This document shows, piece after piece, positions 3,110 through 58,606 of a DNA stretch of 64,000 nt (position 1 is its first letter; every line of letters begins with the position of its first letter). The stretch is from an uncultured Phycisphaeraceae bacterium (GTDB lineage Bacteria > Planctomycetota > Phycisphaerae > UBA1845). The notes beneath the pieces were generated by a model, which saw nothing but the letters and a program-made list of their open reading frames with translations, ran no database searches and had not been told where the DNA came from. Location: contig CAZYLK010000001.1 in assembly GCA_964648365.1 (NCBI GenBank), positions 762-64,761 on the forward strand. The letters are read 5' to 3'. A program made the translations under genes and the position numbers.

Positions 3110-4162
3110 CTAGACCGCGATGAAACTCTCCGGATTGGCCCACTGACCCAGTTCGTGCTGGAACTTCTTGCTCTTGTCGACGATCAGCGTGCCGTCCACC
3201 ACGTTGACCTTGAACCGCTCCAGCGGTCGCGGCGTCGGGCCCTGGAAGTTGATGCCGGTGTAATAGTAGCCGCTGCCGTGACAGGGGCAGAGAAACTTGC
3301 GGTCGTTCGGCAGCCAGTTCGGGATGCAGCCCAGATGGGTGCAGATGATGTTCAGCGCCGCGATCCGGTCTTCCGTGCGGATCATCCAGATGCCCTTGGG
3401 CTTGTAATCCTCGTTGACTTCGCCCGGCGCCATTTCCATGTACTTGGAGACCGGGCCGACCCGCACCCGCGGATCCGGCTCTTCCAGGGCGTTGGGCATC
3501 AGGAATCGTTGCAGCGCCAGGCCGCTGCCGGCCGCGGTCGCCGAGAACAGGCCCCATCCCAGTCCCATCGCCAGCGCTGAACTGGACATCGCCTCGCGTC
3601 GCGACATCTCGTCTTTCGACTTCTTCGCCGTGTCGAGGGTCTTGGCGAAGCGGGCGTCGGGCGGAAGTTCGTCCGGGTCTTTCGAGTCAAGCGGGGATGA
3701 GACGCCGCCGGACTTGCGGGCGATGGCCGCGTTGCCGCCGCGGGACTTGGCCGCCCGAAGCAGCGCCTGCATGGCCGGGTCGCCGATCTCTTCCGCGACC
3801 GGCGGGGCGGGCGCCTTAGCGGCCGCCGCGGTCTTGGCGTCGTCCTTGGCCGCGCCGCCCGCCGCCTTGGCGGCCTTGGGCGCCGCGGCGGGCTTCTCTT
3901 CTGCGGGTTCGGCGGCGGCCTCGGCTTCGGAGACCTCGAACGGCGCCGTGTCGAACTTGATGACATCGACGGGGCATTCTTCCGCCGCGTCGATGATGTC
4001 CTGCGTGATCGGCTTGGTGAACTCAGCGTCCAGCGCCGCCGGACGGATGATGCACGTATCCTCGAGCACCTCGAACACCGTGGGGGCGGTGTTCTCGCAG
4101 GCGTCGCAGACGATGCAGCCTTCTTCGATCCAGACCTTGGTGACGAGTTCTTTCTTCGGCAT
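3110..4162 (-). CDS. Rieske [2Fe-2S] protein with N-terminal ferredoxin-like domain and Ala/Lys/Pro-rich linker
   Basis: Rieske boxes CTHLGC and CPCHGS lie near the C-terminus. A Tat-like motif and anchor (MSRREAMSSSALAMGLGWGLF) is internal. The N-terminal part has CIVCDACENTAP...ECPVDVI (CxxCxxC...CP ferredoxin pattern). ATG 4162 is preceded by GAGG. An in-frame internal ATG at 3607 would give a canonical short Rieske. Confidence 0.8.
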   Translation of the reverse strand: MPKKELVTKVWIEEGCIVCDACENTAPTVFEVLEDTCIIRPAALDAEFTKPITQDIIDAAEECPVDVIKFDTAPFEVSEAEAAAEPAEEKPAAAPKAAKAAGGAAKDDAKTAAAAKAPAPPVAEEIGDPAMQALLRAAKSRGGNAAIARKSGGVSSPLDSKDPDELPPDARFAKTLDTAKKSKDEMSRREAMSSSALAMGLGWGLFSATAAGSGLALQRFLMPNALEEPDPRVRVGPVSKYMEMAPGEVNEDYKPKGIWMIRTEDRIAALNIICTHLGCIPNWLPNDRKFLCPCHGSGYYYTGINFQGPTPRPLERFKVNVVDGTLIVDKSKKFQHELGQWANPESFIAV

Positions 4163-7443: not shown

Positions 7444-8790
7444 ATGCGGATAGGGATGACTGGCCGGTTTCACGTGCTCGCGCTCATTACGGTTCTTGCG
7501 TCCGCAGAGATGGCCGGCGCCCAGACGCTCGGCCGGCGCGGCCTCATGGGCGTACAGCTTGCCCCGCTCGATGCGGATACTGCCGCCAGGCTCAAACTGG
7601 CATCCGCCGAGGGTGTTCTGATCGGCGGCGTCGTCCCAGGAACGCCTGCGGAAGCGGCCGGCATGAAGGCCAGCGACGTGATCGTCGGCGTGGGCGACCG
7701 CAAGACGGTCGACGTCCCGGCGCTCATCGCGGTTCTGCGCAACTACTACGCGGGCGACGTGCTGCCGCTGAAGGTCATGCGCGAAGGCGAGCCGATCGAA
7801 CTGAAGCTGACGCTGGCTGAACGCCCGAAAGAGACGTCCGACGACTTCGACGTGCTCTACGAGGCGGCCTACGTCGGCGATAAACGCGTCCGTACCATCA
7901 TCACCCGTCCCAAGGGCGAAGGCGCCCGCCCGGCGGTCCTGTTCATCCAGCCGATGTCGCAGATGTCGATGGACTTCGGCAACCGGCCGCACCCGTTCAA
8001 GCGGCTGCTGGGCGACCTGACCAAGGCCGGCTACGTGGTGATGCGGGTCGAACGCGTCGGCGTCGGCGACAGCGAGGGCGAAGACGTTCGCCAGACCGAC
8101 GTGAAGACCGACGTGGCGACCTTCCGCGGTGCGCTGGAGAAGCTCGCCACATACGACTACGTGGACAAAGACAACGTCTTCGTGTTGACGCATTCGCTGG
8201 GCGCCGCCATCACGCCCCTGGTGGCGCGCGGCGCGCCGGTGCGCGGTGTCATCACCTACGGCGCCGTCGGCGAGTCATGGATCGACGCAATGGTCGCCGC
8301 CAGCGAGCGAAGCTGGAAGCTGGAGATGATCGAGGATGAGGAAGTCGCTGCGCGATCGAAGAAACTGGCCGCGTTTCTGAAGGGCGTCGTGTCCGAAGGC
8401 AAATCGCCGCGGCAGGTGCTTGAGGCGGACGCTGACTTGCAGCAGACGTTCGACTCCTTCGTGCAAGGCGACGAGTACATCGGCGGGCAGCATTACACCT
8501 ACGTTCAGGCGATGGAGAAGCTCGACGTGGCGGGCGCGTGGAAGGCCTGCGACGGTCCCGTCCTGGCGATCTGGGGCGAGGCCGATTTCGTCGCGGCACG
8601 TGAGGACAGCGCGATGATCGCTTCCGCCGCGAAGAAGGGCACGCTGCTGGCCATGCCCGGCATCGACCACAACTTCGAGCCGGCCGCGGACCAGGAAGAA
8701 AGCTATCTGGCGGGCTTTACCAATCGATTCAATGAGACGGTCATCGAGAAGGTAACGGCGTGGATGAAGGAGAATATGAAGAAGTCGTAG
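7444..8790 (+). CDS. Secreted PDZ domain + alpha/beta serine hydrolase
   Basis: Signal peptide MRIGMTGRFHVLALITVLASAEMAGAQ. PDZ-like segment GVLIGGVVPGTPAEAAGMKASDVIVGVG. Nucleophile elbow VLTHSLGA. Confidence 0.7.
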   Translation: MRIGMTGRFHVLALITVLASAEMAGAQTLGRRGLMGVQLAPLDADTAARLKLASAEGVLIGGVVPGTPAEAAGMKASDVIVGVGDRKTVDVPALIAVLRNYYAGDVLPLKVMREGEPIELKLTLAERPKETSDDFDVLYEAAYVGDKRVRTIITRPKGEGARPAVLFIQPMSQMSMDFGNRPHPFKRLLGDLTKAGYVVMRVERVGVGDSEGEDVRQTDVKTDVATFRGALEKLATYDYVDKDNVFVLTHSLGAAITPLVARGAPVRGVITYGAVGESWIDAMVAASERSWKLEMIEDEEVAARSKKLAAFLKGVVSEGKSPRQVLEADADLQQTFDSFVQGDEYIGGQHYTYVQAMEKLDVAGAWKACDGPVLAIWGEADFVAAREDSAMIASAAKKGTLLAMPGIDHNFEPAADQEESYLAGFTNRFNETVIEKVTAWMKENMKKS

Positions 8791-8794
8791 GTAG

Positions 8795-8845
8795 GGGGGA
8801 AAGGGAGTGAGGGAGTAAGGGAGTGAGGGAGTCAGGGAAGAAGGG
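8795..8845. repeat. Family A octamer array (GGGAGTRA), solo copy just after a stop codon
   Basis: ggggggaaagggagtgagggagtaagggagtgagggagtcagggaagaaggg, a few nt after stop 8788-8790. Confidence 0.9.
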
Positions 8846-8986
8846 CGCCGGCAGCGAGCCGCGTGGCTTTTGCGCGGCGGCGGCGCAGTTCTCGTTGGGC
8901 CGCCCGGGAGAGCGCGCAATCGAAACAGGCCGACCCAGTTCATTGTGGAATGAGCGCGTGCCCGCGCTGTCATCCTGGTTTGGGCC

Positions 8987-9532: not shown

Positions 9533-9643
9533 CATGTGCGCACGTCGGCCCGTGGGTCCAGAGCCATGGCGGTGCGAGGGCGCCAACGTATACGACGCCG
9601 AGTCCTCACTTGCTTCTCCCGCGGCTCCCTCTTTCCCCTCCGG

Positions 9644-9675
9644 CATTCGTTATTCGCCATTCGCTATTCGCCATT
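9644..9675. repeat. Family B octamer array (GAATNNCG read on minus strand), 3 nt downstream of hypE stop
   Basis: The plus strand reads cattcgttattcgccattcgctattcgccatt. The minus sense reads aatggcgaatagcgaatggcgaataacgaatg. Confidence 0.9.
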
Positions 9676-10728: not shown

Positions 10729-10858
10729 AGATTCCAAGGGATTGGGGTCAGGCATATCAGGACTCACGGCAGAGTGTGATCCGCAGATCTCGTAGATCAA
10801 AGAAGCATAGTGGGCTCACTGATCGCGACGGTTACGCGCGGCGGCCACTGCTTCCCCT

Positions 10859-10891
10859 AATTCGTTATTCGCTATTCGCTATTCGCCATTC
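10859..10891. repeat. Family B octamer array overlapping the 3' end of hypD
   Basis: aattcgttattcgctattcgctattcgccattc. The hypD C-terminus ...GRMANSE and its TAG stop (10872-10874) are encoded by the array. Confidence 0.9.
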
Positions 10892-12242: not shown

Positions 12243-12302
12243 GGGGAGTCAGAGAGAATAGGGAGTAAGGGAACAAGGGAGTAAGGGAGTAAGGGAAGAA
12301 GG
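12243..12302. repeat. Family A octamer array between hypF stop and hypC start
   Basis: ggggagtcagagagaatagggagtaagggaacaagggagtaagggagtaagggaagaagg. In the hyp (minus) sense it reads as TTACTCCC units ending 13 nt before the hypC ATG. Confidence 0.9.
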
Positions 12303-12585
12303 CATCGGCTTCTTTGTATGAGAAGTATGCAGTTGGGAACGCCTGGCCGTCCTGTCGTGAGTTTCCCGCAAGAAGAACAGGTCGATATAAGCGGCAATGT
12401 GCATTGCCCCGAAGGGGCTGAACATGCCAGCCCAGGGCAACGCCCTGGGTGAGCGTGGCCCGTGAGGAGCCAGCCCTGTAAGGGCGACACATCGCTGTCG
12501 CGGCCCGTTCGGGGCGGCGCGCTGCGGGGCGGGTGCAGCTCGGGGAAGCGTGTTCTTGGTTGGTACACCTCGGCGTGGTCATATC

Positions 12586-15336
12586 TCATCCCGATTGCAG
12601 GGCCACGTCCTTCGCTGCTACCGCCGCTGCAATGGCAAGCTGGCCCAGGCTCAGGCCGCCGTCGTTGGGGGGAACCTGGCGATGGCGGATGACGCGGAAT
12701 CCGTCGCGTTGAAGCCGCGCCGTCGCCCCTTCCAGCAGCAAAACGTTCATGAACACTCCCCCGCTGAGGGCCACCAGGCTAACGCCGGTCTGCGCACGCA
12801 GCCGCCCACACACGTCGACGATCAGTTCGACCAGCGTGGCGTGGAACCGGCGGGCGATCACGGCCGGGTCCACCGATGCCCGCACGGCGCACAGGACGTT
12901 GCGGATCAGCGGGCGGGTGTCGATGATCATAGGCGCGTCAGAATGATCAGGCTGTCGGTCCGCCGCCGCGGGCGTGACGGCGTACGCGTAGGCATCATCG
13001 GGCTGTTGTGCTACCGCCGATCCGCCATGTCCGCGGAGTGACACCGAGTTCGAGCCGGTGGAATCACGGGCTGGAAGCCCGTGCCACACCGCCTCGTTCG
13101 GGCTGCCGTTTAGCGGCGGTGTGGACGCCGCCCATTCCAATTCGATGGCGGCCTGTCCCTCATACGCGGCCGTCTGGCGAATGCCGGCCAGCGCCGCCAC
13201 GGCATCGAACAGGCGGCCCATGCTGGACGTAAGTGGTGCATTGATGCGCTGCCGGATCATCCGCTCGATCACGCTCAGCTTCTGTCGCGACACGTGCCGC
13301 TGGAGCGCCTCGCAAAAGCCGACCGCGTCGATCAGATGCGCGGCGGCCATGCGCCAGGGCTCATGGATCGCCTGCTCGCCGCCGGGCATGGGCACGTAGC
13401 GCAGATGCGCCGCGCGACGGAAGCTGGACAAATCGCCGACCAGAAACTCGCCGCCCCAGACCGCGCCGTCTAGGCCGTAGCCGGTTCCGTCGAAGATCAC
13501 CCCAATGGCCGTCTCGGTCGATCCGTTCTCCGCCAGGCAACTCGCGAGGTGGGCGTGATGGTGCTGCACGGCGAGCCGCCGCGGCGTGCGGTTTGCGAGC
13601 GTCGGTCCCTGCAAATCCGCGCGGGCACAAGCCCGCGGCTCGCTTGAATTGCCGGATTCGCATCGCTGCAGCGCGTATCGCGTGGTCGCGTAGTCCGGGT
13701 GCAGGTCGTGCACGAGCAGCGCCGGCTGAATGTCGAAGAACCGCTCGAAGTCGTCGATGGCCTGCGTGTAGGCTCGAAACGCAGAGAAGTCGTCCAGGTC
13801 GCCGCCGTGGTGGCTGAGCATCGCCTGATGGCCGGCGCCCAGCGCGAACGTCGCTTTTAACTGCCCGCCGACGGCCAGGATGGGGATGCGGCAGTCGCTC
13901 GGCAGCGACAGCGGCTGCGGCACGTACCCCCGCGAGCGCCGCAGGATCAGCGGCGCCCCGCCGGTGACGCGGACGATCGAGTCGTCGCAGCGGCGGTGGA
14001 TCGGCCGGTCGTGCGTCAGCAGCAGATCGGCCAGACCGGCGAAGCGTTGGCGGGCGTCGGAGTCCTCGTAGGCGATCGGCTCGTCGGACAGGTTTCCGCT
14101 GGTCATCACCAGCGGCGTGCCGTCCATCTCGGCCATGAGCAGATGGTGCAGCGGTGTATACGGCAGCATCACGCCCAGCAGCGGATTACCCGGCGCGACG
14201 GCATCGGCGATGGGGTATACAAGCGAGCCGCGGGCTTCAGCCCGCGCGGATTCCCGGCACGGAAAACCCGTCCCGTTCGCAATCGACACGCCCTTACGGA
14301 GCGCAACGTCGCCCACTGACGCCGACGCCAAATCCAGCCCCGGCCGCAGAATGCCGAGTGTGGTTGCTGGAACGAGTGGAGAGCCAAACGAGTCAGGTGA
14401 CGCGGAGTTTCGCCGAACGTCCGCGCGGGCTGAAGCCCGCGGCTCGCTTTCGCTCGTGAGTTCTTCTGCATGGCCGGATCGCCGCTTCAGCAGCACGATC
14501 GGTCGGCGCACATCCTCCAGCAGCCGCGCCTCATCGTACGACACCTCGCAGATCGCCTCGGCCGCGGCCAGATCGCGGACCATGATCGCGAACGGCTTTT
14601 CCTCGCGATGCTTGCGGCCGCGGAGCCTCTCAACGGCGGCTCCGTCCGACGCCAGGCAGGCGAGGTGATAGCCGCCCAGCCCTTTGATCGCCACGATGGC
14701 GCCGCGGCGCAGGGATTCGGCCGCGGCGCGCAGCGGGTCATCTGTGGCTGCCGCGGTACCGTCGGGGGTCTCAAGCGCCAGTCGCGGCCCGCACACCGGG
14801 CAGGCGGTCGGCTCGGCGTGAAAGCGGCGGTTGGCCGGATCCTCATATTCCCGGCGGCAGGCGTCGCACATGTCGAACCGCGACATCGTTGTCTGCGCGC
14901 GGTCGTAAGGGACGCCGGTGATGATCGTCAGCCGCGGTCCGCAATGGGTGCAATTCAAGAACGGGTAGCGATAGCGGCGGTCGGCCGGGTCGAAGAGTTC
15001 GGTCAGACATTCCGGGCACGTCGCCACGTCGGCCGGTACGGACACGCGCGACCCGCCGTCCGGTTCGCTGGCGACGATCTCAAATGCCCGGTCGTGTTGC
15101 GGCGGGCAGTCCTGCCACTCAACCCGGTCGATGCGGGCCAGCGGCGGGAGACGATCCGTCAACGCTTGTTGGAACCGGCTCAGGGTGGCGGCCGCGCCCT
15201 CGACTTGGATGAGTACGTGCGAGCCTTCGTTGCGCACGAAGCCGGTCAGGCCAAGCTGTGAGGCAACACGGTGGACGAAGGGGCGGAACCCGATCCCCTG
15301 CACCAGACCCGTGACTTTGGCACTTCGCCGGACCAT
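12586..15336 (-). CDS. hypF: Carbamoyltransferase HypF, enlarged by in-frame repeat-derived insertions
   Basis: Acylphosphatase N-terminus VTGLVQGIGFRPFV. Two zinc-finger pairs (CPECLTELFDP...CTHCGPR; CDACRREYEDP...CPVCGPR). YrdC-like and Kae1-like parts (GVMLPYTPLHHLL, VQHHHAHLAS). The start was set to ATG 15336. The product is 916 aa versus about 750 aa in E. coli HypF. Confidence 0.9.
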   Translation of the reverse strand: MVRRSAKVTGLVQGIGFRPFVHRVASQLGLTGFVRNEGSHVLIQVEGAAATLSRFQQALTDRLPPLARIDRVEWQDCPPQHDRAFEIVASEPDGGSRVSVPADVATCPECLTELFDPADRRYRYPFLNCTHCGPRLTIITGVPYDRAQTTMSRFDMCDACRREYEDPANRRFHAEPTACPVCGPRLALETPDGTAAATDDPLRAAAESLRRGAIVAIKGLGGYHLACLASDGAAVERLRGRKHREEKPFAIMVRDLAAAEAICEVSYDEARLLEDVRRPIVLLKRRSGHAEELTSESEPRASARADVRRNSASPDSFGSPLVPATTLGILRPGLDLASASVGDVALRKGVSIANGTGFPCRESARAEARGSLVYPIADAVAPGNPLLGVMLPYTPLHHLLMAEMDGTPLVMTSGNLSDEPIAYEDSDARQRFAGLADLLLTHDRPIHRRCDDSIVRVTGGAPLILRRSRGYVPQPLSLPSDCRIPILAVGGQLKATFALGAGHQAMLSHHGGDLDDFSAFRAYTQAIDDFERFFDIQPALLVHDLHPDYATTRYALQRCESGNSSEPRACARADLQGPTLANRTPRRLAVQHHHAHLASCLAENGSTETAIGVIFDGTGYGLDGAVWGGEFLVGDLSSFRRAAHLRYVPMPGGEQAIHEPWRMAAAHLIDAVGFCEALQRHVSRQKLSVIERMIRQRINAPLTSSMGRLFDAVAALAGIRQTAAYEGQAAIELEWAASTPPLNGSPNEAVWHGLPARDSTGSNSVSLRGHGGSAVAQQPDDAYAYAVTPAAADRQPDHSDAPMIIDTRPLIRNVLCAVRASVDPAVIARRFHATLVELIVDVCGRLRAQTGVSLVALSGGVFMNVLLLEGATARLQRDGFRVIRHRQVPPNDGGLSLGQLAIAAAVAAKDVALQSG
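13065..13087. repeat. H3-type hairpin (CACGGGCTGGAAGCCCGTGCCAC) inside hypF coding sequence
   Basis: Read directly. It shares the gaatcacggg...cccgtgccac frame with the intergenic copies at 15399-15421 and 15467-15489. Confidence 0.8.
13616..13641. repeat. H4-type hairpin (TCCGCGCGGGCACAAGCCCGCGGCTC) inside hypF coding sequence
   Basis: Read directly. It is translated as ...SSEPRACARAD... in HypF. Confidence 0.85.
14225..14445. repeat. MITE-like 221-bp segment bounded by inverted H4 hairpins (14225-14250 and 14420-14445) inside hypF
   Basis: gagccgcgggcttcagcccgcgcgga at the left end and its reverse complement tccgcgcgggctgaagcccgcggctc at the right end. The whole segment stays in frame in HypF. 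Confidence 0.8.
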
Positions 15337-15367
15337 CGCATCACAGTCCACCAGCAGGATGCCGGAG

Positions 15368-15489
15368 CACCGGTTGAAAACCGGTGCCACAAGAGAATCA
15401 CGGGCAAGATGCCCGTGCCACACGTGCCACACAGACGCCGGTTGCAAACCGGTGCCACAGGAGAATCACGGGCAAGATGCCCGTGCCAC
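15368..15489. repeat. Duplicated composite hairpin unit [H1 + H3] x2 between hypB stop and hypF start
   Basis: The four modules are caccggttgaaaaccggtgccac (15368-15390), cacgggcaagatgcccgtgccac (15399-15421), ccggttgcaaaccggtgccac (15438-15458) and cacgggcaagatgcccgtgccac (15467-15489). Confidence 0.9.
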
Positions 15490-15494
15490 GGGGG

Positions 15495-16193
15495 TCACCG
15501 GTGACAAGCCGGCGCCACGGTTTCGCGACCGGCGGTGACCAATTCGATCACTTCATCGACGCCGACCCCGTTGCGGACGGATGTTTCGATGACCCGCATT
15601 CCCGGTCGGACCCGCCAGATGGCGTCGAGCATCGCGCGGCTGTCGAACCCCGCGGCCGCGGCCAGATCCACTTTCGTCAGCACGCACACGTCGGCCGTGT
15701 TGAAGATCGTCGGGTACTTCAGCGGCTTGTCCTCGCCTTCGGTGGTCGACACGAGGACCAGCCGCAGATCTTCGCCGAGGTCGTAACTGGCCGGGCAGAC
15801 GAGGTTGCCGACGTTTTCGATAAACAGAAAATCAAGCTCATCCAGGCGCCACGGTTGCTCTGCTTCATCGCCACCGGCCAGCGCACGTTCGATCATTGCC
15901 GCTTCCAGATGGCAGACGGTTCCCGTGACGATCTGCCGCACGGCCGCGCCGCTGGCGGAAAGCCGCCTGGCGTCGTTGTCCGTCGCCAGATCGCCGACCA
16001 GCGCCGCGACGCGATGGGCTCTGCCCAGGCGTCGGAGCACCTCGCAGAGGAGCGACGTCTTGCCCGCGCCCGGGCTGGAGACGAGGCTGACGACGAACGT
16101 TCCCGCCTCGTGAAACCGACTCCGCAGCGCGCGTGCGACCACGTCGTTGTGCTTGAGGATCTGCCGGCGTACTTCGACCAGGCGCGTTGTCAT
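15495..16193 (-). CDS. hypB: Hydrogenase nickel-incorporation GTPase HypB
   Basis: P-loop SSPGAGKTSLL and a G3E-family layout. It has a 4-nt overlap with hypA. Confidence 0.9.
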   Translation of the reverse strand: MTTRLVEVRRQILKHNDVVARALRSRFHEAGTFVVSLVSSPGAGKTSLLCEVLRRLGRAHRVAALVGDLATDNDARRLSASGAAVRQIVTGTVCHLEAAMIERALAGGDEAEQPWRLDELDFLFIENVGNLVCPASYDLGEDLRLVLVSTTEGEDKPLKYPTIFNTADVCVLTKVDLAAAAGFDSRAMLDAIWRVRPGMRVIETSVRNGVGVDEVIELVTAGRETVAPACHR

Positions 16194-33850: not shown

Positions 33851-33896
33851 GCGTGCCTCCGTCCCGGCTCAGACGCGCACACATGGCGCCCTCTGT

Positions 33897-33937
33897 CATT
33901 CGACATTCGCCATTCGCCATTCGCCATTCGCCATTCA
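33897..33937. repeat. Family B octamer array 2 nt downstream of rpoD stop
   Basis: The plus strand reads cattcgacattcgccattcgccattcgccattcgccattca. The minus sense reads GAATGGCG units. Confidence 0.9.
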
Positions 33938-33939
33938 AC

Positions 33940-35655
33940 CTACACCGCCTGCGGCTCATCCGGGCTGAGCGTGTCCAGGAAGCCCTCCAGCTTCCGCGCG
34001 CGGACCGGGTGCTGGAGCTTGCGGATGGCTTTGGCTTCGACCTGCCGCACGCGCTCGCGGGTGACCTTGAAGATTTTGCCGACCTCTTCCAGTGTGTAGG
34101 TGTAGCCGTCGCCGATGCCGTAGCGGAGCTTGATGATCTCGCGCTCGCGGTAGGTGAGCGTCTTGAGCACCTCTTCGATCCGGTCGCGGAGCATCTCGCT
34201 GCCGGCCGTGGTGATGGGCGACTCGGCCGCGTCGTCTTCGACGAAATCGCCGAAGTAGGAGTCCTCGCTCTCACCGACCGGGCGGTCCAGCGAGATGGGC
34301 TGGCGCGAAATCTTCAGCACGCGCCGCACTTCCGACAGCGGCATCTTGGCCTTCTTGGCGATCTCGTCGATGGTCGGCTCGCGGCCCAGATCCTGGAGCA
34401 ACTCGCGGTGCATGTTGCGCAGCCGGCTCATCGTCTCGATCATGTGGACCGGGATGCGGATGGTGCGGGCATGATCGGCGATGGCGCGGGTGATGGCCTG
34501 ACGAATCCACCACGTCGCATACGTGCTGAACTTGTAGCCGCGCTTGTACTCGTACTTGTCGACGGCGCGCATCAGTCCCGTGTTGCCCTCCTGGATGATG
34601 TCGAGGAAGGACAGGCCGCGGTTGCGGTATTTCTTGGCGATGCTGACCACCAGGCGCAGGTTGCCGCCGGAGAGTTGCCGCTTGGCGTGCTCGTACTCGC
34701 CGAAGACTCGCTGGATCGACTTGAGTGATTCGCCCAGATCCTTCGGCTTGGCCAGGCACAGCGACTGGATCCCCGCCAGTTCCTCCTTCATGGCGACCAG
34801 GTCTTCGTACGGAATCGACTGCCGCTTGGACTGGCCCGAGAGCCGGCGTTCAAGCTGAAGCATCTTGGAGTGCAGGCCGCGGGCCCGCTTCATCAGGGGC
34901 TGGATGCGACTGGTCCGCAGCGAAAGCTCTTCCAGCAGCTTGGCGACCCGGCGGCACCGCTGCTTCATGGCTTTCTGGATTTCCTTCTTCTTCGCGGCCG
35001 CCACGCGCGGCGCGTTCAGCTCCTCCCAGGCTTCCTCGTTCTTGTCGAGCATGGCTCGGACGCTGGCGAGGTTGCCGGGCATGCGGGTGAGGATGCGGGT
35101 CTTGGCGGCGTGCTCCGACGTGGAGATTTTCATCGTCCGGTCGAACGGCAGCCGGCTGTCCTGCACCTGTTCGAGGATGTCGACGGCCAGGCGCGAGGCG
35201 TAGTGAATTTCGAGCACTTTCTGGCGGAACGCCATGCGGGTCAGCTCGATCTTCTTGGCGAGGCGGATTTCCTCGTCCCGCGTCAGCAGCGGGATCTCGC
35301 CCATCTGGGTGAGGTACATCCGGACCGGGTCGTCGATGCGCTTGCCCGACGACTCGGCGGCCGGCGCCGACTCCTCGTGGGAGGACTCGTCCGTGCCGTC
35401 GCCCTCGCCACGGCCCTTGCCCTTGTTGGGCCGGCGACGGCGTTCGAAGGCGATGGCATCGAGTTCGTCAAGAACCTCGATTTTCGCCTCTTCAAATCGC
35501 GCAAGAAGCTGCTCGACCACGTCCCGGTCGATCGCGTCGTCCGGGAGGACGTTGTTCATGTCGTCCCAGGTGACGTACCCGCGCTGCGCTCCCCGCTCCA
35601 TCAGCGTCCCGATCGCAGCTTCGATCGGATCCGCGATGACTGCCGTTTCGCTCAT
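33940..35655 (-). CDS. rpoD: Primary sigma factor RpoD (sigma-70)
   Basis: Region 2 [27 protein letters not shown] and region 4 [27 protein letters not shown]. The ATG at 35655 was chosen over the GTG at 35670. Confidence 0.95.
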
Positions 35656-38046: not shown

Positions 38047-38880
38047 ATGAGAAACTGGGTTAAGTCGTGCGCGGCCCTCGTGGTGGCCGCGGGTCTGGTT
38101 CAGGTCGCGCTGGCCGGAGGCTCGACGCAGGTGCCCGCCGGATATCCCGGATCGGACTACGTGGGCTTCGAGTCCGTCCAGGGCCCGCAGGCGTCGGGCT
38201 GTCTTGAACTGGACATGAACCTGGGCCGCGGGGCCTACTCGAACATCGGCGAGACGGACCGCAGCGTCGCGGTGGACATCAACAGCCAGGTCAGCGTCAA
38301 CGCGATGGGAATCGTGTACCAGTCGGGCGCCGATCACGATCTCCTCTGCATCATCCGCGAGGTGAACGGCAACGTCCGCGGGAACGAACTGGCCCGTGAG
38401 CAGATCTTCGTGCCGGCCGGCGGGGGGATGGAGTATCACGACGTGCCGATCAACTTCACCTTTCAGCCCGGCACCCGCTACGACATCGCCTTCCAGGCTG
38501 TGCCCGACTGGGGCTTCAATGTTCACAGCATGGAGCTTCTGAACTTCAACAACCCGAACCTGGACCCGAACCAGGGGTTTGACGTGGGTCCGTTCAAGGT
38601 GCTGGACGGCGGCGCCGACCGGGCGAGCGGCTACTCGAACTTTCTGATGCCTCGAGTGCAGGTCTGCGAAGGCGGCGCCGGCTGCGTCTACACGATCAAG
38701 AAGAGCGCCGGCAAGAAGGGCTGCCAGACCTGTCCGGAGCGGGGCGCGGATCTGCGTACGCAGATCGAGTGCGAGGACGTCAACGACTGCGACAAGAAGG
38801 TTAAGACCCGCCTGTCCTGCCCGGGCGGCGGGAACGGATTCTGCAAGGTGAAGGGCAAGCGCTCGTCCTGCGGCGGGTGA
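38047..38880 (+). CDS. Secreted protein of unknown function with C-terminal 8-Cys domain
   Basis: Signal peptide MRNWVKSCAALVVAAGLVQVALA. C-terminal tail CVYTIKKSAGKKGCQTCP...CDKKVK...CKVKGKRSSCGG, paralogous to the tails at 17245-17451 and 63759-63960. Confidence 0.7.
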   Translation: MRNWVKSCAALVVAAGLVQVALAGGSTQVPAGYPGSDYVGFESVQGPQASGCLELDMNLGRGAYSNIGETDRSVAVDINSQVSVNAMGIVYQSGADHDLLCIIREVNGNVRGNELAREQIFVPAGGGMEYHDVPINFTFQPGTRYDIAFQAVPDWGFNVHSMELLNFNNPNLDPNQGFDVGPFKVLDGGADRASGYSNFLMPRVQVCEGGAGCVYTIKKSAGKKGCQTCPERGADLRTQIECEDVNDCDKKVKTRLSCPGGGNGFCKVKGKRSSCGG

Positions 38881-39442: not shown

Positions 39443-40201
39443 ATGATTCTCGGCAAGTTCTGGCATGTGGTGATGGCGCAGATCAACAAACTGGCCAACA
39501 TTTTCTGGACGGCCGATCCCATCGCTCAGATGCAATACGAGTACGACCAGGCAGTCGCCCAGATGAAGGAAGGCCGCGAGGGATTAGAGCAGTACCGCGC
39601 CCTGGTGGAACGGGTCAGCCGTCAGGTCGCGACGACGAAGCGGCACGTCGCCAACCTGGAGGCCAAGGTCAAAGCCTACCTGCAAGCCGGCGATCGCGAG
39701 ACGGCCGCCAAGTTCGCGCTGGAACTTCAGAAGGCCCGGGCGGAACTCGTCGAGAACGAAGAGCAGCTCACGCTGCACGAGACGGCCTACAACAACAACC
39801 TGACCAAGATCAAGCACGCTACCGGCAAGCTGGCCAAGGTACGTGAGAAGATCCAGAAGTACGACGCCGAACTGAAGATGAGCAAGGCCGAGGGTGAGAT
39901 GGCCAAGCTGGCTCAGTCGTTCAACTTCGACGTGACGACGGACTTCGGCGCCATCGAATCGGTCATTCAGGACAAGATCAGCCTCAACCGGGCCAAGGCG
40001 CGGGTCGCATCGGATCTTTCCAGCGAAGGCATTGTGGACGTGCAGCGCGAGCAGGCGATGGAACAGGCCATGGCCGATCAGGCCCTGCGCGAGTTCGAGA
40101 TGGACCTCGGGCTGGTGACGCCGGAGACGTCGTCTGTTGCCGATGAGACAAAGCAGCTTGGACCGGCCGTGACCGAGGCGAATACGCAGACGCAGGGGTG
40201 A
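39443..40201 (+). CDS. pspA: PspA/IM30 (Vipp1) family protein
   Basis: 252 aa, MILGKFWHVVMAQINKLANIFWTADPIAQMQYEYDQAV... with long coiled coil typical of PspA/IM30. The start was set to ATG 39443. Confidence 0.85.
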   Translation: MILGKFWHVVMAQINKLANIFWTADPIAQMQYEYDQAVAQMKEGREGLEQYRALVERVSRQVATTKRHVANLEAKVKAYLQAGDRETAAKFALELQKARAELVENEEQLTLHETAYNNNLTKIKHATGKLAKVREKIQKYDAELKMSKAEGEMAKLAQSFNFDVTTDFGAIESVIQDKISLNRAKARVASDLSSEGIVDVQREQAMEQAMADQALREFEMDLGLVTPETSSVADETKQLGPAVTEANTQTQG

Positions 40202-40560
40202 GGAAGAAGGGAGTAAGGGAGTGAGGGAGTAAGGGAGTAAGGGAAGAGGAACGATGCAACATTGTTCTACATCGCGCGGTTCTGCCGGCTCGCGAATCGC
40301 TTCCCCATCGCACCTGAAACAGCGTGCGCGATCACGCGCCAGCGCCGAGCCGCGGGCTTCAGCCCGCGCGATCCCCCCGGAAGTGAAGCGGCTACGAATC
40401 GCGCACTGTGATTTAGAAGAAGGCACCTCGGAAAAAGGACTGAGTCGGATGCGGAAACGTCGGGATGTCAGATTCGACGTGCCATCCGCTCTTCCCTTAC
40501 TCCCTCACTCCCTTACTCCCTCACTCCCTTCTTCGGGAACTCCCTCACTCCCTCCTTCCG
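40201..40560. repeat. Intergenic repeat complex: family A array forward (about 40209-40250), H4 hairpin (40347-40371), family A array reverse complement (40490-40560)
   Basis: The forward array reads gggagtaagggagtgagggagtaagggagtaagggaag. The hairpin reads gagccgcgggcttcagcccgcgcga. The reverse array reads cttcccttactccctcactcccttactccctcactcccttcttcgggaactccctcactccctccttcc. Confidence 0.9.
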
Positions 40561-43472: not shown

Positions 43473-44279
43473 ATGAGGTCGGCGACCGGACAATCTCGAC
43501 AACTCGCACGGCTGTGTTCGCTGGGCGTCGTCTCGATCGCGGCGCTCATCATGTTCTTTCCAAGTTGCGACCGTGACTCGTCGTCATCGACCGGAGGTCG
43601 GTCCCCGTCGCGCCAGTCGGGCAAGCGCGTCAGCGCCGGCCCAATCGACCTGCCCCAGGCGGACCAGCGGCTGTGCACGGGTGTCGTGCTGCTGGTGGAC
43701 ACGTCGGGCAGCATGAACCAGAAGGTGCGCGATCGCGGCGGCGCGGAACAGCCCAAGCACGTGATCGCTCGAGCGGCGATCGACCGGATCGTGGCGTATA
43801 CCGATCAGTGGCAAACGCAGCATCCCGACCGCGTGCTGCACCTCGGCGTGCTCAATTTCAGCAGCTCCGCCCATACGGTCATGCCGCTGGCGGCGTTTGA
43901 CGCTGCCACGGCCGCGGAGGCCGCGACGCGCATACCGGCGCCGGGCGGAGGAACCGCCATCGGCTCAGCCCTGCAGGAAGGCTTCAAGGCGCTCTATGCC
44001 TCCGGCTGCGTGCGGAAGTACGTCGTCTGCATCACCGACGGCGAGAACACGTCCGGCCCGCCGCCCGACCGGGTCGCCCGCGCGCTGCACGGCCAGACGG
44101 AAGGCGACGTCGAGATCCACTTTGTTGCATTCGACACGTCGCCCGCTAAGTTCGCATTCCTGTCGAAGGTCAACGGCTACGTCGTCGAGGCGGCGGACGG
44201 GGCGCAGCTCGACGCGCGGCTGGCCGATATCTATGAGAAACGGATCCTGGCGGAGGCGATGACGCTCGAAAAGGAATAG
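43473..44279 (+). CDS. von Willebrand factor A (vWA) domain lipoprotein
   Basis: RBS AGGAGGTG. Lipobox-like MFFPSC. MIDAS motif LVDTSGSM. GGGTAIGSAL and ITDGENTSG segments. Confidence 0.85.
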   Translation: MRSATGQSRQLARLCSLGVVSIAALIMFFPSCDRDSSSSTGGRSPSRQSGKRVSAGPIDLPQADQRLCTGVVLLVDTSGSMNQKVRDRGGAEQPKHVIARAAIDRIVAYTDQWQTQHPDRVLHLGVLNFSSSAHTVMPLAAFDAATAAEAATRIPAPGGGTAIGSALQEGFKALYASGCVRKYVVCITDGENTSGPPPDRVARALHGQTEGDVEIHFVAFDTSPAKFAFLSKVNGYVVEAADGAQLDARLADIYEKRILAEAMTLEKE

Positions 44280-44563
44280 CGAATGTCGAATAGCGAATAA
44301 CGAATGAAGCTCGCGCCGGTGCAGCGATCCTTCAGAACGGGGAGCGTAAACGACCGGCTGCGGAGGAATGTCGAATGTCGAATGAAGAGCAAATCGGAGC
44401 GGAGCGGCGCTATCCGGGCCGGAGCCGGAGACCACTGACAGAGGAAATGGGGATCGAGAATGGAGCCGTCTGACGCTGGAGCAGCATGTTCGTCTTCTCT
44501 GCATTCGACATTCGACATTCGCCATTCGACATTGAACCTTAGCCATTCGCCATTCGACATTCC
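44275..44563. repeat. Family B octamer arrays: forward 44275-44309 and 44366-44387, reverse complement 44502-44562
   Basis: The forward arrays read aatagcgaatgtcgaatagcgaataacgaatgaag and gaatgtcgaatgtcgaatgaag. The reverse array reads cattcgacattcgacattcgccattcgacatt..agccattcgccattcgacattcc. The vWA stop TAG (44277-44279) lies in the first unit. Confidence 0.9.
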
Positions 44564-48616: not shown

Positions 48617-49504
48617 ATGCGCCGCCCGGCCGGAAAACTCGGCACCTATCTGAAGGCAGCGTTCACCCACCACTGGAACCTGCTGGCCTTTTTCGGTGCG
48701 CTGGGTTTTTCCCTGCTCAGCGGCATGCCGGACGTGCTGATCCCTCTGGTGGTGGCCGGCGAGATGGTCTATGTGGGCGGGCTGGCCGCGCATCCGAAGT
48801 TCCAGGCCTACATCGACGCCCAGGCGGCCAAGGCGGTCCGGCAGGACGGCTCGTCCCGCTCGCAGCAGATGCTCAATACCATGCTGCGCCGGCTCCCGCC
48901 GCGCACGATTGACCGGTTCGAGACGCTGCGCAACCGCTGCCTGGAACTGCGACAACTCGCCCTGGAACTGAAAGACCCCGGCCACACCGGCGGCGCGCGC
49001 CCGCTCGACGACATGCAGATGTCCGGCCTGGACCGGCTGCTGTGGATCTACCTGCGGTTGCTGTTTACCGAGCATTCGCTGGAGCGCTTCCAGGAGCGCA
49101 CCCACCCGTCGCAGGTCGAAGCGGACATCGAGGCGCTGGAGGCCCAGCTTTCCGACAGCGCGTCGATCGCCGACGACATTCAGCGGCAGAAGGTTCAGCG
49201 CACCCTTCAGGACAACCTCCAGACCTGCCGCGACCGGCTCGCCAACCTGCAGAAAGCCCGTGACAACCTCACGGTGGTCAAGCTCGAACTCGACCGGCTG
49301 GAAAACAAAATCCGCGCCTTAAGCGAACTGCCCCTCAACCGCCAGGAGCCCGACTACATCACTGCCCAGGTGGACGCGGTGGCATCGAGCATGGTGCAGA
49401 CCGAGCAGACGATGAACGAACTGCAATTCGCCACCGGCCTGGAAACGGCCGACGAAGCCGTGCCGCCGCTGATGAGCCGGCCGGTGGCGATGATGCAGGA
49501 ATAG
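48617..49504 (+). CDS. Hypothetical membrane protein with two N-terminal TM helices and long coiled coil
   Basis: 295-aa ORF 6 nt after the ABC ATPase gene. It has WNLLAFFGALGFSLLSGMPDVLIPLVVAGEMVYVGGL followed by Q/L/E-rich heptads. Confidence 0.6.
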   Translation: MRRPAGKLGTYLKAAFTHHWNLLAFFGALGFSLLSGMPDVLIPLVVAGEMVYVGGLAAHPKFQAYIDAQAAKAVRQDGSSRSQQMLNTMLRRLPPRTIDRFETLRNRCLELRQLALELKDPGHTGGARPLDDMQMSGLDRLLWIYLRLLFTEHSLERFQERTHPSQVEADIEALEAQLSDSASIADDIQRQKVQRTLQDNLQTCRDRLANLQKARDNLTVVKLELDRLENKIRALSELPLNRQEPDYITAQVDAVASSMVQTEQTMNELQFATGLETADEAVPPLMSRPVAMMQE

Positions 49505-49534
49505 CGAATAGCGAATGGCGAATAACGAATGAAG
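49500..49534. repeat. Family B octamer array spanning a stop codon and the argH start codon
   Basis: aatagcgaatagcgaatggcgaataacgaatgaag. The TAG at 49502-49504 ends the upstream gene, and the ATG at 49529-49531 (unit GAATGAAG) starts argH. Confidence 0.9.
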
Positions 49535-51528: not shown

Positions 51529-54500
51529 ATGTCGGCAATAGCGCCCACGCCCCAACAGCGCCAGGCGATCGAAACCGCCGGGTGTGAAGTGATCGTTTCC
51601 GCGGCCGCGGGATCGGGCAAAACCTCCGTACTGGCCGGACGTTGCGCGTATCTGGTCTCCGAGGCGCCGGCGCCGTGGCGCTGTGATGCGGATGCACTGC
51701 TGGTGCTCACTTTTACCGAGGCCGCGGCGGCGCAGATGCGCTCGCGGATCGTGGATCGGCTGCGGGAGCGGGTTCGCCAGCGCCCGGAGGATGCACGGCT
51801 CCGACGGCAGTTGTCGCTGATCGACCTCGCAGAGATCGGCACGCTCCACGCGTTCTGCCTGTCGCTTGTGCGGCGCTATTTTTCGACACTGGGCGTCGAC
51901 CCGGACGTCCGCGTCCTGGATGCGGACGAGGCGGCGCTGATCGAGCGTGACGCCATGGACGGCTTGTTCGAGCGCCTCTACGCGCGTCAAGCCGTCGGTG
52001 TGACAGGCGCGTCGGGGGGGGGGAACGCGGGCGCCGACGCCGGCAGGGGGGTGGCGGACGTTCTGGCCGGTCGGTTTGTCGAGCTGGTTGAGGTCTACGG
52101 ACTGGGGCGCGACGCTGCGATCGCGGAGGCGGTGCTGCGCCTGAGTCGTTTTCTCGACAGCCTGCCCGACCCCGAGGGATGGCTGCACACACATGTCCAC
52201 GCCGCGGCTGCCAACCCCGCCGGCCTGGTGGATCGCAAACTGGCTCAACTTCGTGACGAGCTGGCGCGGCAACTCGAACATCTGCGGGCGCAGTGGGCGG
52301 CGATCGACGGGCAGGAGAGCCGATGCCGTCTGGTCAAAGATGCGCTGCGGGCGTACGGCGTCCAACTGAACGAATGGGCGGCGATGGCCGCCGCGCCCGC
52401 CGAAGGGGCCGATGCCGCCAGCGCCGGCGCCTGCCTGGATCGCCTGCGCGGCGCGATGGCGGCCTTCGAGTTCAAAAAACCGCACGGTGTCCGGCGCCGG
52501 CCGGGCGAAGAATTGCCGCCGCATGTGCGGTATGCGGTGGAGACGTTCGACGAGGTGCAGAAGGGCCTTTTCAGCGGACGGCTGATGAAAGCGTTCGGGC
52601 GGTTCAGCACGGCCGAGTGGATCGCGGGGGCGGGGGCCGTCGTGCCGCACGCCGCCGCGCTCGCGGACCTGGCGATCGAGTTTCGTGCGGAGTACCTGGC
52701 CCGCAAGCGGGCGCTGGGCGCGATCGACTTTTCCGATCTTGAGCGGCTGGCGTATACGCTGCTGTCGGCGGACGGAGAGGGCGGGGGCCAGGTCGCCGAG
52801 GAGCTTCGTGCTCGATTCGCGCACGTCTGCGTCGACGAGTTTCAGGACATCAACCCGCTGCAGGCGGCGATCATCCGTGCGGTGAGCCGGACCGGCGACG
52901 GGGCGAACCTCTTCGTCGTCGGCGATGTGAAGCAGAGCATCTATCGCTTCCGCCTCGCCGAGCCGGAGCTTTTTCTCGAGGCGTGGCGGCAGGGCCGCCA
53001 AACCGATCGAGGGGGGGCGATCCCGCTGCAGAGCAACTTCCGCAGCCGCAGCGAGGTGATCGGTTTTGCCAATCTGCTCTTCGAACAGTTGATGCGGCCG
53101 GGCGCGGGGGCGGTCGTGTACGATGATCACGCCCGGCTGGTCGCCGGCCGCGCCGACGCCGCTGCGCCGCCGCCGCAACTCGTCGAACTCCACCTGCTGG
53201 CTCGACGTCTGGACGCTGCGCCCGGCTCGGAAAATGCGGACGAATCGGGCGAGCACGCCGTCGACTCGCCCCCCCCCGACGGCGACGACGCGGTTCGCGC
53301 CTTTGATCCCACCGACCCGGCCGAGTGGAACCCGATCGAGCGCGAGGCGTTCCTGATCGGCCGCCGCATCGGGCAACTGATGACCGACGGATCCGTGACG
53401 CCCGATGGAAAGCGCCTCCAGTATCGCGACATCGCGATCCTGCTGCGGTCGACGAAGGTGAACGCCGCACAGGTCGCGGCCATGCTGACGTCGATGGGCA
53501 TCCCCGTCCACAGCGACGCCGCCGTGCCCTTCCTGTCGTCGCAGGAAGTTCGCGAGATGCTCGATGCACTGCGCGTGCTCGACAACCCGCGTCAGGACAT
53601 TCCCCTGGCCGGGGTCATGCGAACCGGCGTCCTGGGCGAGTCGTTTACGGAAGACGAACTCGTTGAGATTCGCGCGATGGATCGTTCCGTGGCGTTCCAC
53701 CAGGCGGTGCATCGATTCGGGCAGTCGGGTCCGGCCGGTGCGACGCAGCGGAAGCTGTCCCGCCTGCTGGCGACGATTGATCAGTATCGGCACGAGGCCG
53801 GCACGCGCCCGCTGGCCGACGTCGTCTGGGACATCTACGACCGCGGCGGCTATCTGGCGCACGTCGGCGGGTTGCCGCGCGGGCTTCATCGCCGTGCCAA
53901 CCTGATTCACCTGCACGAGCGCGCCCGCCGGTTCGGTACGTTCCGCCGGCAGGGGCTGCACTACTTCCTGCGTTACATCGAGCTGCTGGAATCGCGCGAC
54001 GCCGATCTGAGCGACTCCGCGCCGTCGCCCGGCGCGGAGGACGCGGTGCGGATCATGTCCATCCACATGGCCAAGGGTCTGGAGTTTCCCGTCGTGTTCC
54101 TGGCGGGCACCGGAACGCGGTTCAACATGCAGGACAGCCGCGGCATGATCCTGTTCAGCCGCCGGAGCGGCATCGGTCTGCGCGTCGTCGATCGAGACAA
54201 GTACGTTCACTATCCGGGGCTGGCGCATTCACTGGTCGTCGATGAGGTCGAGCGGGACGCCCGCGAAGAAGAGCTGCGCGTGATGTACGTCGCGCTCACT
54301 CGGGCGCGCGAGAAGCTCATCGTCATCGGAACGCCCGTCTGCAAGGACATCGATGAGTGGGTCGCCGCCGCCCGGGGTACGGGTCGGCCGCCCACGCTCT
54401 ACGCCGTGGACCGCGCCGGCTGCATGTTGGACTGGATCGTGCCGTGCATGGCGTCCGCGCCGGTCGGCGATGTCGCGTGGCCGGAGGGCGCCTCTTCAAC

Positions 54501-55497: not shown

Positions 55498-55516
55498 CCG
55501 GGGGATGGAATGCTGT

Positions 55517-58500: not shown

Positions 58501-58606
58501 GGAGTCCGGCGCCGAATCCGGCATCGTGGCTTCCGCGGCAGGCCCGGTGACGGCCGCAAGCGGGACAGGTCGGGATCGCGCCCCGACGGGCGCAGGCGCG
58601 CATTGA
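55517..58606 (+). CDS. putA: PutA-like fusion: proline dehydrogenase domain + aldehyde-dehydrogenase-like domain (the latter apparently lacking catalytic residues)
   Basis: N-terminal arm KAAAFEFVATLPSL. ProDH barrel motifs VRLVKGAYWD and RVYSPYGD...YLIRRLIENTSNDSFL. ALDH fold markers LLPWNAPL and VILKPD, but GQSFSA stands where GQxCxA is expected. Start alternatives are 55481, 55505 and 55517. Confidence 0.8.
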   Translation: MRVLGGYDAQLDARVRELGREIFERAADATPRFGQRAWALEKLTSWVDSDPKLKAAAFEFVATLPSLRDDHDIARHLAEFMAQREVDLPLPARWALGLGSDHRLQTGATSDHRLQTGATSDHRLQTGATPDHRLQTGATPDHQLETGATGDHRLQTGATGDGNATLLSSLIGVMARRGASAMAERFITGHDEASVTATLERFRSQGMTFTLDVLGESTTSDAVAERYLNTYLELIEHLCPRAATWSNAPTIDRTDRGQQPRVNISIKLTGLDPHFDPVDPQRSIDEVCARITPLLRRSRELGAFVNVDMEAFRYRDLTLDLFEHLMMRPEFRDWEDVGIVVQAYLADGERDLARLLDWGRNRGSRFAVRLVKGAYWDTEVALAAEAGLPPPVWTQKWQSDACYERMTRVMLAHTDVIRPCFASHNVRSLAHVLGTAERYGLTPRSYEVQMLYGMGDPLKDAMVRMGQCLRVYSPYGDMIRGMAYLIRRLIENTSNDSFLKQGFTHRAGYDRLLADPAIAGPARNGRGGSGNGADSGAPEASTPGVAQSDFGRRETRDAMTAALKRRGDVPTFMPYVAGRFITATATEDAADASRPGVAIARIGLARPADVDDAVAAARTAAAAWSARSDAERREAVAALTERMITRRMELAAWLIRDAGMTWRAADIEVAAAIRACRRWGATLPAATRPGGRVWAALLPWNAPLSVAAEVLACGLAAGRAVILKPDLRAACAACVLATLVDELELPAGLAAIVAGPDPATAGRLTRHTGVDRLIRIGPPDPDLDAASGEGAGRAFGRTFVPDSVVVVGHTANLDAAVWGAVQSAYDFAGQSFSAAKRIIVDAAVHDAFVERLKEAVESLMIGPADAPLTLVGPMIDEAARERFRRSVAAVASISRIVVDRTAAADAASGCVGPLLLTGAQLAPAAIGPVACVYRAASFEQALRMANARPAPAAAVYTRTPSQLRAARIALAESEVTINTPVAGGGWGGLGQLVLSESGAESGIVASAAGPVTAASGTGRDRAPTGAGAH
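55820..55993. repeat. Six tandem 30-bp copies of the H1 hairpin inside putA, in frame
   Basis: caccggttgcaaaccggtgccaca + 6 nt, with copies starting at 55820, 55850, 55880, 55910, 55940 (degenerate) and 55970. They are translated as DHRLQTGAT[SPG] x6. Confidence 0.95.

Follow-up and report, generated by a model that had tools for sequence, protein, structure and literature searches.

A probable REPIN-like hairpin doublet in frame within a loop of a Phycisphaeraceae HypF

How did a segment of more than 200 bp, bounded by a perfect inverted repeat, come to lie in frame within the gene for the maturation enzyme HypF? The question is raised by a 64,000-nucleotide stretch of DNA from an uncultured Phycisphaeraceae bacterium (assembly GCA_964648365.1, contig CAZYLK010000001.1, positions 762 to 64,761), here called the window, in which hypF occupies positions 12586 to 15336 of the minus strand. 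The initial annotation of this DNA took the segment for something like a miniature transposable element with inverted repeats (MITE). Judged by its sequence, a doublet of repetitive extragenic palindrome (REP)-like hairpins, comparable to the inverted REP doublets called REPINs, appears to fit the segment better. We are confident that the segment derives from a REP-like family, here named REP_A, and is tolerated in a loop of the protein; how it came to be there is less certain, and several routes need to be weighed.

A hairpin-bounded segment in frame within hypF

The initial annotation reported a 26-mer, GAGCCGCGGGCTTCAGCCCGCGCGGA, at 14225–14250 (plus strand) and its reverse complement at 14420–14445 (minus strand), bracketing about 170 bp. 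This pair is exact, and in 100 dinucleotide-preserving shuffles of the window the 26-mer found no match. The true repeat is slightly longer: a perfect inverted repeat of 30 nt (AAGCGAGCC...GCGCGGA) at 14221–14250 and 14420–14449, with 169 nt between the arms and an overall length, arms and interior together, of 229 bp. Each arm is a hairpin by itself, CGCGGGC-N4-GCCCGCG, and both arms together form a 30-bp perfect stem as RNA or single-stranded DNA (z about −5.5 relative to shuffles); the 249-nt stretch that holds the element has a folding energy of −138 kcal/mol. In gene order, the first arm (14420–14449, minus strand) is a sense copy of REP_A that encodes (E)SEPRASARAD and has no mismatches to the clade consensus GAGCCGCGGGCTTCAGCCCGCGCGG. 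The second (14221–14250, plus strand), antisense to hypF and encoding SARAEARGSL, is the reverse complement of the first, exact over all 30 nt. The interior between them (14251–14419, minus strand) encodes VRRNSASPDSFGSPLVPATTLGILRPGLDLASASVGDVALRKGVSIANGTGFPCRE.

That the segment is extra to HypF emerges from comparison with homologues, and here the earlier description of a stop-free insertion of about 85 residues holds good. The stretch from RPIVLL to APGNP measures 97 residues in the window HypF; of 92 homologues that allowed the measurement, 82 have 12. When the window protein is aligned with 3VTH, a solved structure of full-length HypF, its residues 288–376 (14209–14475, minus strand) stand opposite only three residues of the chain. 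About 85 extra residues are thus encoded, in frame and without a stop codon, and a segment of this kind can be explained without invoking inteins, introns or translational bypass. The nearest relatives free of the segment, P0003 and P0004, are 61–63% identical to the window protein by best local alignment and 67% by global alignment, a distance at which alignment would not fix the insertion boundaries to the nucleotide. In the homologue alignments, no orthologue conserves the sequence of the window insert at this loop.

The host gene appears to be intact. The mechanical open reading frame (ORF) runs from 12586 to 15447 on the minus strand (953 codons, with a TTG at its upstream end, 15447). 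Translation probably begins at the ATG at 15336, giving a product of 916 residues plus stop that is 100% identical to P0001 over all 916; the extension towards the TTG is 37 codons too long and crosses hairpin repeats of the hypB–hypF intergenic region (15365–15519), an alternating array of two further hairpin families, REP_B and REP_C. Copies of REP_B also occupy the hypB–hypF intergenic position (L121, 2787–2930) in SURF_32 (GCA_003597935.1), the metagenome-assembled genome (MAG) of the nearest relative. Pfam assigns the window protein the complete set of five HypF domains (acylphosphatase, two HypF zinc fingers, YrdC/Sua5-like and Kae1-like C-terminal), with the YrdC match divided into two stretches, and the maturation cluster hypA-B-F-C-D-E around the gene is complete. 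The two halves of hypF that flank the insert are collinear and in frame, and every column that is invariant across an alignment of 120 homologues is retained.

An AlphaFold model built with the 120 homologues reaches a predicted TM-score (pTM) of 0.85 and superimposes on chain A of 3VTH with a TM-score of 0.95 (normalised to the target) and a root-mean-square deviation of 2.8 Å. The per-residue confidence score of the model (pLDDT) falls below 50 only at residues 297–364, in the main insert, and 760–775, in a second insert, and dips to 53–59 around residues 561–580, in a third. The main insert is accordingly modelled as a disordered loop of about 80 residues that leaves the HypF fold undisturbed, and the enzyme is probably still active. 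The proposal that the insertion is in frame and tolerated agrees with this model.

The interior carries no imprint of coding history. Its G+C content at codon positions 1/2/3 is 0.66/0.61/0.64, compared with 0.72/0.51/0.83 in the remainder of hypF, and the deficit at the third position (GC3) has a binomial p of 6e-4. Because it lacks the codon-position structure of its host gene, the interior is not a coding linker of long standing, nor is it a fragment captured from a native gene. Of the six reading frames of the interior, four are open. A random stretch of 55 codons with this composition is free of stops in 23% of cases, which means that about one insertion in 13 would preserve the ORF; with chance openness of this order, an ORF-preserving insertion is what selection would leave and is in itself unremarkable. 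The RNA fold of the interior is nothing unusual (z = +1.1), and the interior has no palindromicity beyond the arms. Rfam gave no match to the hypF locus at gathering thresholds and, in a permissive scan, two chance-level matches only (E above 0.3), and the translated insert matched no Pfam family.

Neither the insert peptide nor the YrdC region, when used as a protein query, recovered the source protein itself, which makes these searches uninformative. Two uncharacterised repeat proteins, P0241 and P0242, came up as possible relatives of the insert and were judged spurious: their HMMER E-value of 1.5e-6 is inflated because one region of the query was matched to several repeats (the best single stretch has 18 identities in 44 gap-free positions), no Pfam family is involved, and the interior lacks coding composition. 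As a separate observation, the reverse-complemented interior (14251–14419) is also stop-free in the hypF frame, so that if the two 30-nt arms recombined, another allele in frame would result, SEPRASARAD-SRHGKPV...EFRRT-SARAEARGSL.

The REP_A family and its doublets

The initial annotation took the arms for the ends of a 221-bp unit. They are not private to such an element: both arms are copies of a REP-like hairpin that is spread across a clade. The REP_A unit is a GC-rich hairpin of about 25 nt, GAGCCGCGGGC-TTCA-GCCCGCGCGG, with an 8-bp stem, one bulge and a 4-nt loop, and conservation stops abruptly outside these 25 nt or so. A scan for the core GAGCCGCGGGC-N4-GCCCGCGCG, with the loop left free and one genome taken per species, located it in at least 119 DNA stretches from dozens of species-level MAGs, nearly all of them Phycisphaerae, Phycisphaerales or Planctomycetota. 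The sampled loci hold 186 copies with at most five mismatches, and the loop is TTCA in 74% of copies. Variants of the stem covary: 18 double-sided cells were counted, compared with 3.2 ± 1.6 in shuffles (none of 500 shuffles reaches 18), and two-sided changes from GC to AT occur at four of the eight stem pairs. The hairpin is thereby shown to be under structural constraint.

The placement of REP_A is not random with respect to genes. Copies between predicted genes lie 49 times between unidirectional, 19 times between convergent and twice between divergent genes (background 264/60/59; p = 8e-4). The intragenic fraction ranges from 11%, by a strict test, to 40% when loose stop-to-stop ORFs are counted, and the peptides most commonly encoded are EPRASARA and ARAEARGS. 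Head-to-tail arrays with a 42-nt (14-codon) period also occur (L059, 2445–2595; L048, 1158–1224; L067; L075), those of L048 inside an ORF of 1561 codons. Within the window, the three further hairpin copies listed earlier are all present. The copy at 13616–13641 (minus strand, two mismatches, both in the loop) lies in hypF, and the copy at 40347–40372 (plus strand, two mismatches) is intergenic on a GC3-based ORF map. The third, at 54806–54831 (plus strand, one mismatch), is translated in frame (RAAGLSPRG) in an AddA-like gene at 51529–55497, where it sits between the UvrD_C and PD-(D/E)XK domains of a UvrD-helicase plus PD-(D/E)XK ORF. The arms of the hypF doublet both match the consensus perfectly, whereas these three solo copies carry one or two mismatches.

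Pairs were defined as copies with at most five mismatches and a neighbour within 300 nt. Close pairs have a strong preference for one orientation: 22 are convergent, with their tags pointing outward, 14 are tandem and a single one is divergent (convergent versus divergent, p = 6e-6). In the usual convergent pair the start-to-start offset is 62–66 nt, equivalent to a spacer of 35–44 nt with no sequence conservation from one genome to another. Over all doublets, offsets run from 27 to 196 nt. The hypF pair shares the convergent orientation of the family at an offset of 196 nt and so belongs to a minority with long spacers. Other long-spacer pairs have offsets of 195 (L054), 166 (L011), 162 (L014), 144 (L052) and 140 nt (L005), and the long spacers of L005 and L053 hold nested repeats. 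Convergent pairs still lead among those at least 120 nt apart (6 of 11, p = 0.03). The hypF interior shows no similarity to those of five other doublets and retains no trace of the repeat families of the window (REP_B, REP_C and the 8-mer and 7-mer arrays described below).

The closest parallel to hypF comes from SURF_32, where a convergent REP_A doublet of 195 nt (L011, 2160–2354) stands in frame in a gene of the Trp-halogenase/FAD-binding type and splits its Pfam matches. It encodes SEPRASARAD, 47 further codons and SARAEARGS. If the unit is taken as GCGAGCC...GGCTCGC, it measures 225 nt (75 codons) in hypF and 195 nt in L011, both multiples of three. Two doublets of this same MAG, L011 and L052, have about 47 nt of interior in common beside one arm, a likeness that points to doublets being copied as units. 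Whether the hypF arms and spacer likewise arrived together we put at about even odds. Metagenome scans carry little weight on this point: a search for a doublet with a 155–185-nt gap and one for the arm with the GCCGAAC extension shared with L054 both gave no matches, the second even though its pattern is present in L054, a locus from a JGI-derived MAG.

How the segment may have arisen

The loop that received the segment holds other material in other lineages. In SURF_32 the same YrdC loop of HypF contains six tandem 30-nt units (PLPYGRGSDG; L121, about 3961–4150), to which the window interior has no similarity. In P0066, a lower-GC relative, a perfect palindrome with 33-nt arms and a 12-nt loop stands there in frame (L122, 3912–3989; 78 nt, or 26 codons), and in P0005 a short extra stretch starts with SESEPR. 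Unrelated repeat insertions thus stand in this loop in three other lineages. The initial annotation had named homologous segments at this position in unrelated lineages as the sign of an ancestral linker; loop insertions do exist there, but they are different repeat elements, and the loop is therefore better regarded, on these alignments, as a permissive hot spot than as an ancestral linker. A partial similarity links the arm and flank of the P0066 palindrome to the arm-adjacent part of the window insert (73% over 49 columns, p about 0.02 against a natural-sequence background). The peptide likeness between VRRNSASPDS of the window and VRRYSDDPDS of P0066 was set aside: it lies in that separate 33-nt-arm palindrome, and the DNA similarity is borderline.

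Two further sites in the window hypF carry repeat-derived insertions, bringing the total to three sites and about 160 extra residues. The solo REP_A copy at 13616 encodes SEPRACARAD within an insertion of about 25 residues in the Kae1-like part (query residues 557–586 opposite five residues of 3VTH). A decayed version of the hairpin, GPRASARTD, occupies this site in SURF_32 HypF without a change of frame, suggesting that the insertion is older and common to the window lineage and SURF_32. A REP_C hairpin, CACGGGC-N-GCCCGTG, lies at 13061–13089 (plus strand; family D6 in the repeat analysis of the window) and contributes VWHGLPARD to the third insertion in gene order (query 736–802 opposite 18 residues), the one that includes the low-confidence residues 760–775. 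A different loop of SURF_32 HypF, behind the second zinc finger, carries a REP_A copy (EPRASARAD; L121, 3595–3619) that has no counterpart in the window gene.

We think it probable that the main segment is a convergent doublet of the REP_A hairpin with its spacer, that is, a palindromic, non-autonomous, REPIN-like element that landed in the YrdC loop of HypF. The element would have landed in a short, surface-exposed and length-variable loop of the YrdC-like domain; the inserted length preserved the frame and contained no stop, so the segment would be translated as a disordered loop and hypF would survive. Movement may have depended on a hairpin-recognising single-strand transposase of the HUH/RAYT, IS200–IS605 type, where RAYT stands for REP-associated tyrosine transposase; mobilisation by RAYT tyrosine transposases has been proposed for REPINs (PMC3116915, PMC3337134). 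Target-site duplications, which the initial annotation proposed to look for at the boundaries, are absent: the flanks (...GGGGTATAC / unit / TCGCTCGTGA...) contain no direct repeat, even though the arms are free of mismatches, and direct repeats are also absent at the other doublets examined. Movement by a single-strand transposase would leave no target duplication and is consistent with this absence.

It is important to point out what weighs against a REPIN-like origin. Only 69 of the 186 REP_A copies (about 37%) are paired, and this dominance of singlets is unlike classical REPINs; the hypF spacer of about 170 nt is four times the usual 35–44 nt; and a second copy of the interior is absent from the 64-kb window and from 815 kb of related loci. 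The GTAG or CGTC tag that the described super-families of REPs carry is also missing from REP_A. Its 5′ tail is (C)GAG, and CGTCCG, the most frequent hexamer at the opposite end, is found in only 15 of 148 copies. Finally, neither a motif search nor tblastn with E. coli TnpA_REP (a query checked against PDB 4ER8) detected a RAYT-like gene in the window or the related loci, the latter consisting of 8-kb snippets; the sole tblastn match, in L019 (E = 0.6), lies outside any ORF and was rejected as a candidate. Since RAYT genes are typically single-copy (PMC5581495), this negative is weak evidence, but a REPIN assignment cannot be confirmed without a RAYT.

Against a doublet that landed as such stands, with a lesser though appreciable probability, a stepwise origin, in which two solo hairpins, or one that was copied locally, came to flank an older, lineage-specific insertion and the 229 bp never moved together. 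The long spacer, the uniqueness of the interior and the preponderance of singlets in the family all suit such a history, as do a loop that accepts many kinds of insertion, a gene with hairpin-bearing insertions at three separate sites, and the nested repeats in the other long spacers (L005, L053). However, the arms are in the orientation that the family prefers and that leads even in wide pairs, both are free of mismatches when the solo copies of the window have decayed, the identical architecture recurs in another gene of SURF_32, and no leftover of a different repeat family was detectable in the interior. A classical MITE is improbable; it would be an insertion sequence of the DDE-transposase type, reduced by deletion, that moved as a unit of 221–229 bp and would be present in many copies. 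Part of the MITE-like description stands: a perfect 30-nt terminal inverted repeat, a length below 500 bp, the lack of a transposase ORF and a long hairpin fit the published account of such elements (PMC10969869). Other features do not fit. There is no target-site duplication despite pristine ends; the supposed terminal repeat is a self-folding, mostly solo hairpin found clade-wide and conserved over about 25 nt only; and the element is GC-rich rather than AT-rich. Further copies of the full unit, for which the initial annotation proposed a search, did not turn up in the window or the 815 kb, with a unique interior here and unrelated interiors at variable offsets (27 to 196 nt) in the doublets compared.

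It is also conceivable, though distinctly improbable, that the segment has a function in cis, with the 30-bp stem in the mRNA serving as a control point for RNase III or translation, with the segment being bypassed or removed, or with an interior that inverts. The stem is very stable, RNase III is known to cut the stems of Correia elements in Neisseria mRNAs (PMC10969869) and by analogy might cut the hypF message, and the reverse-complemented interior is stop-free; yet the insert is not conserved in any orthologue, features of inteins or introns and above-chance Rfam matches are missing, the structure of the interior is ordinary, and with four of six frames open its openness in both directions is unremarkable. 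Least probable of all is that the segment is no insertion but an ancestral linker, or is not real at all, being an assembly artefact or part of a dying pseudogene. The source assembly is apparently a MAG, repeats can mislead assemblers, and long linkers occur here in the HypF of several relatives too. These linkers are different sequences, however; the borderline P0066 match covers arm-adjacent sequence only and the interior lacks coding composition, while the collinear, in-frame halves with their invariant residues, and the same architecture in the independent SURF_32 assembly, speak against decay or misassembly.

Translated repeats beyond hypF and comparison with known systems

Three proteins of the window carry translated hairpin units: HypF, the AddA-like helicase and PutA (55481–58606, plus strand). 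In PutA, six tandem 30-nt units of REP_B (55817–55998), a hairpin of the form CACCGGTT-GCAA-AACCGGTG, are read in frame as DHRLQTGATS six times over, between the PutA_N and proline dehydrogenase domains. Together with the repeatedly hit HypF loop, this wider pattern is the part worth following. Translated palindromic repeats are evidently not limited to reduced intracellular genomes such as those of Rickettsia, and for annotation such inserts account for over-long, domain-split proteins in Phycisphaerae MAGs and should be taken neither for new domains nor for pseudogenes. The repeated loop insertions across lineages amount to a natural map of insertion tolerance in HypF, and the REP_A family, widespread, covarying and arranged in oriented pairs, is a candidate for a system of the REPIN type in a phylum with none characterised.

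The pattern can be stretched further, into a class-wide, structure-constrained hairpin system of the Phycisphaerae with REPIN-like pairing and placement that repeatedly colonises permissive enzyme loops, a proposal that we regard as tentative and rather doubtful. If true, it would be a GC-rich counterpart, in non-reduced genomes, of the Rickettsia palindromic elements (RPEs) and would keep supplying proteins with disordered linkers. On this view the HypF loop was struck independently, in separate lineages, by three or more distinct elements, palindromic or tandem; the choice of site might then be guided by local structure in DNA or RNA, over and above the survival of harmless insertions, and the borderline likeness of the window insert to the P0066 palindrome would be real.

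The window contains several other repeats. Tandem 8-mer arrays (GGGAGTAA/GGGAGTGA, or the complement CCCTTACT) lie at gene boundaries (563–677, 8787–8859, 12253–12309, 40201–40257 and 40478–40553); two of them, inverted relative to each other, bracket the region of the solo hairpin at 40347, and just upstream of hypC, as of the gene with its start near 40572, the sense strand has the pyrimidine-rich form. Gene boundaries likewise hold arrays of tandem 7-mers, ATTCGCC/ATTCGCT with the complement GAATGGC/GAATAGC (9636–9675, 10851–10890, 33889–33942, 44272–44561 and 49497–49534), for example at the hypD–hypE junction and just before the gene at 49526. A 54-nt inverted repeat (38770–38823 and 63807–63860), 81% complementary with its halves 25 kb apart, is apparently coding and may reflect paralogous Cys-rich proteins on opposite strands.

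Among described systems, the REPs and REPINs of Pseudomonas and Enterobacteria offer a close comparison. Classical REPs are placed between unidirectional or convergent genes and rarely between divergent ones (PMC3733652), and a REPIN consists of two REPs in inverted orientation, with a less conserved spacer between them, folding into a single hairpin (PMC3116915). REP_A resembles them as a short, GC-rich, self-complementary unit in many copies, with the same placement relative to genes, with inverted doublets whose spacer is not conserved and that fold into one long hairpin, and with no target duplication at hypF. It differs in lacking the GTAG/CGTC tag and a detectable RAYT in the window and the 815 kb, in having more singlets than doublets, and in a core that spans dozens of species of Phycisphaerae and Planctomycetota rather than one species group; the spacer in hypF, moreover, is far longer than that of REP_A's own usual doublets (about 170 versus 35–44 nt). 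The bacterial MITEs (Correia, Chunjie, QMITE; PMC10969869) share with the hypF element their size, a terminal inverted repeat, a transcript that forms a long hairpin and the potential for in-frame fusion. The hypF element, unlike them, has no direct repeats and no multi-copy core, is GC-rich and has independent hairpin repeats for ends.

Repeats inside proteins have precedents of two kinds. Di Nocera et al. (2013) described intragenic REPs in Opitutus terrae, Thauera, Rickettsia conorii and others, where monomers, dimers and clusters add 20–82 residues in frame, often in genes for helicases of the UvrD/RecBCD type (PMC3733652). The window shares with these the translated in-frame repeats, one of them also in an AddA-like gene, but the repeat family and the branch of the phylum differ, the hypF pair encloses a long unique spacer, and most of the added peptide in HypF is not encoded by the repeat. 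The Rickettsia RPEs are palindromic inserts of about 150 bp, in frame in unrelated housekeeping genes and compatible with the fold of the protein (PMC10969869). The hypF segment is likewise a fold-compatible, in-frame palindromic insert with a recurrent peptide (here EPRASARA/ARAEARGS). In contrast, RPEs are conserved over their full length and reside in reduced, AT-rich intracellular genomes, whereas here only the 25–30-nt ends are conserved, the hosts are GC-rich and the window has no sign of genome reduction. Given the base composition, homology to RPE families is unlikely. In-frame palindromic repeats within proteins are thus already known, and the hypF segment is a further example of them rather than a new kind of element.

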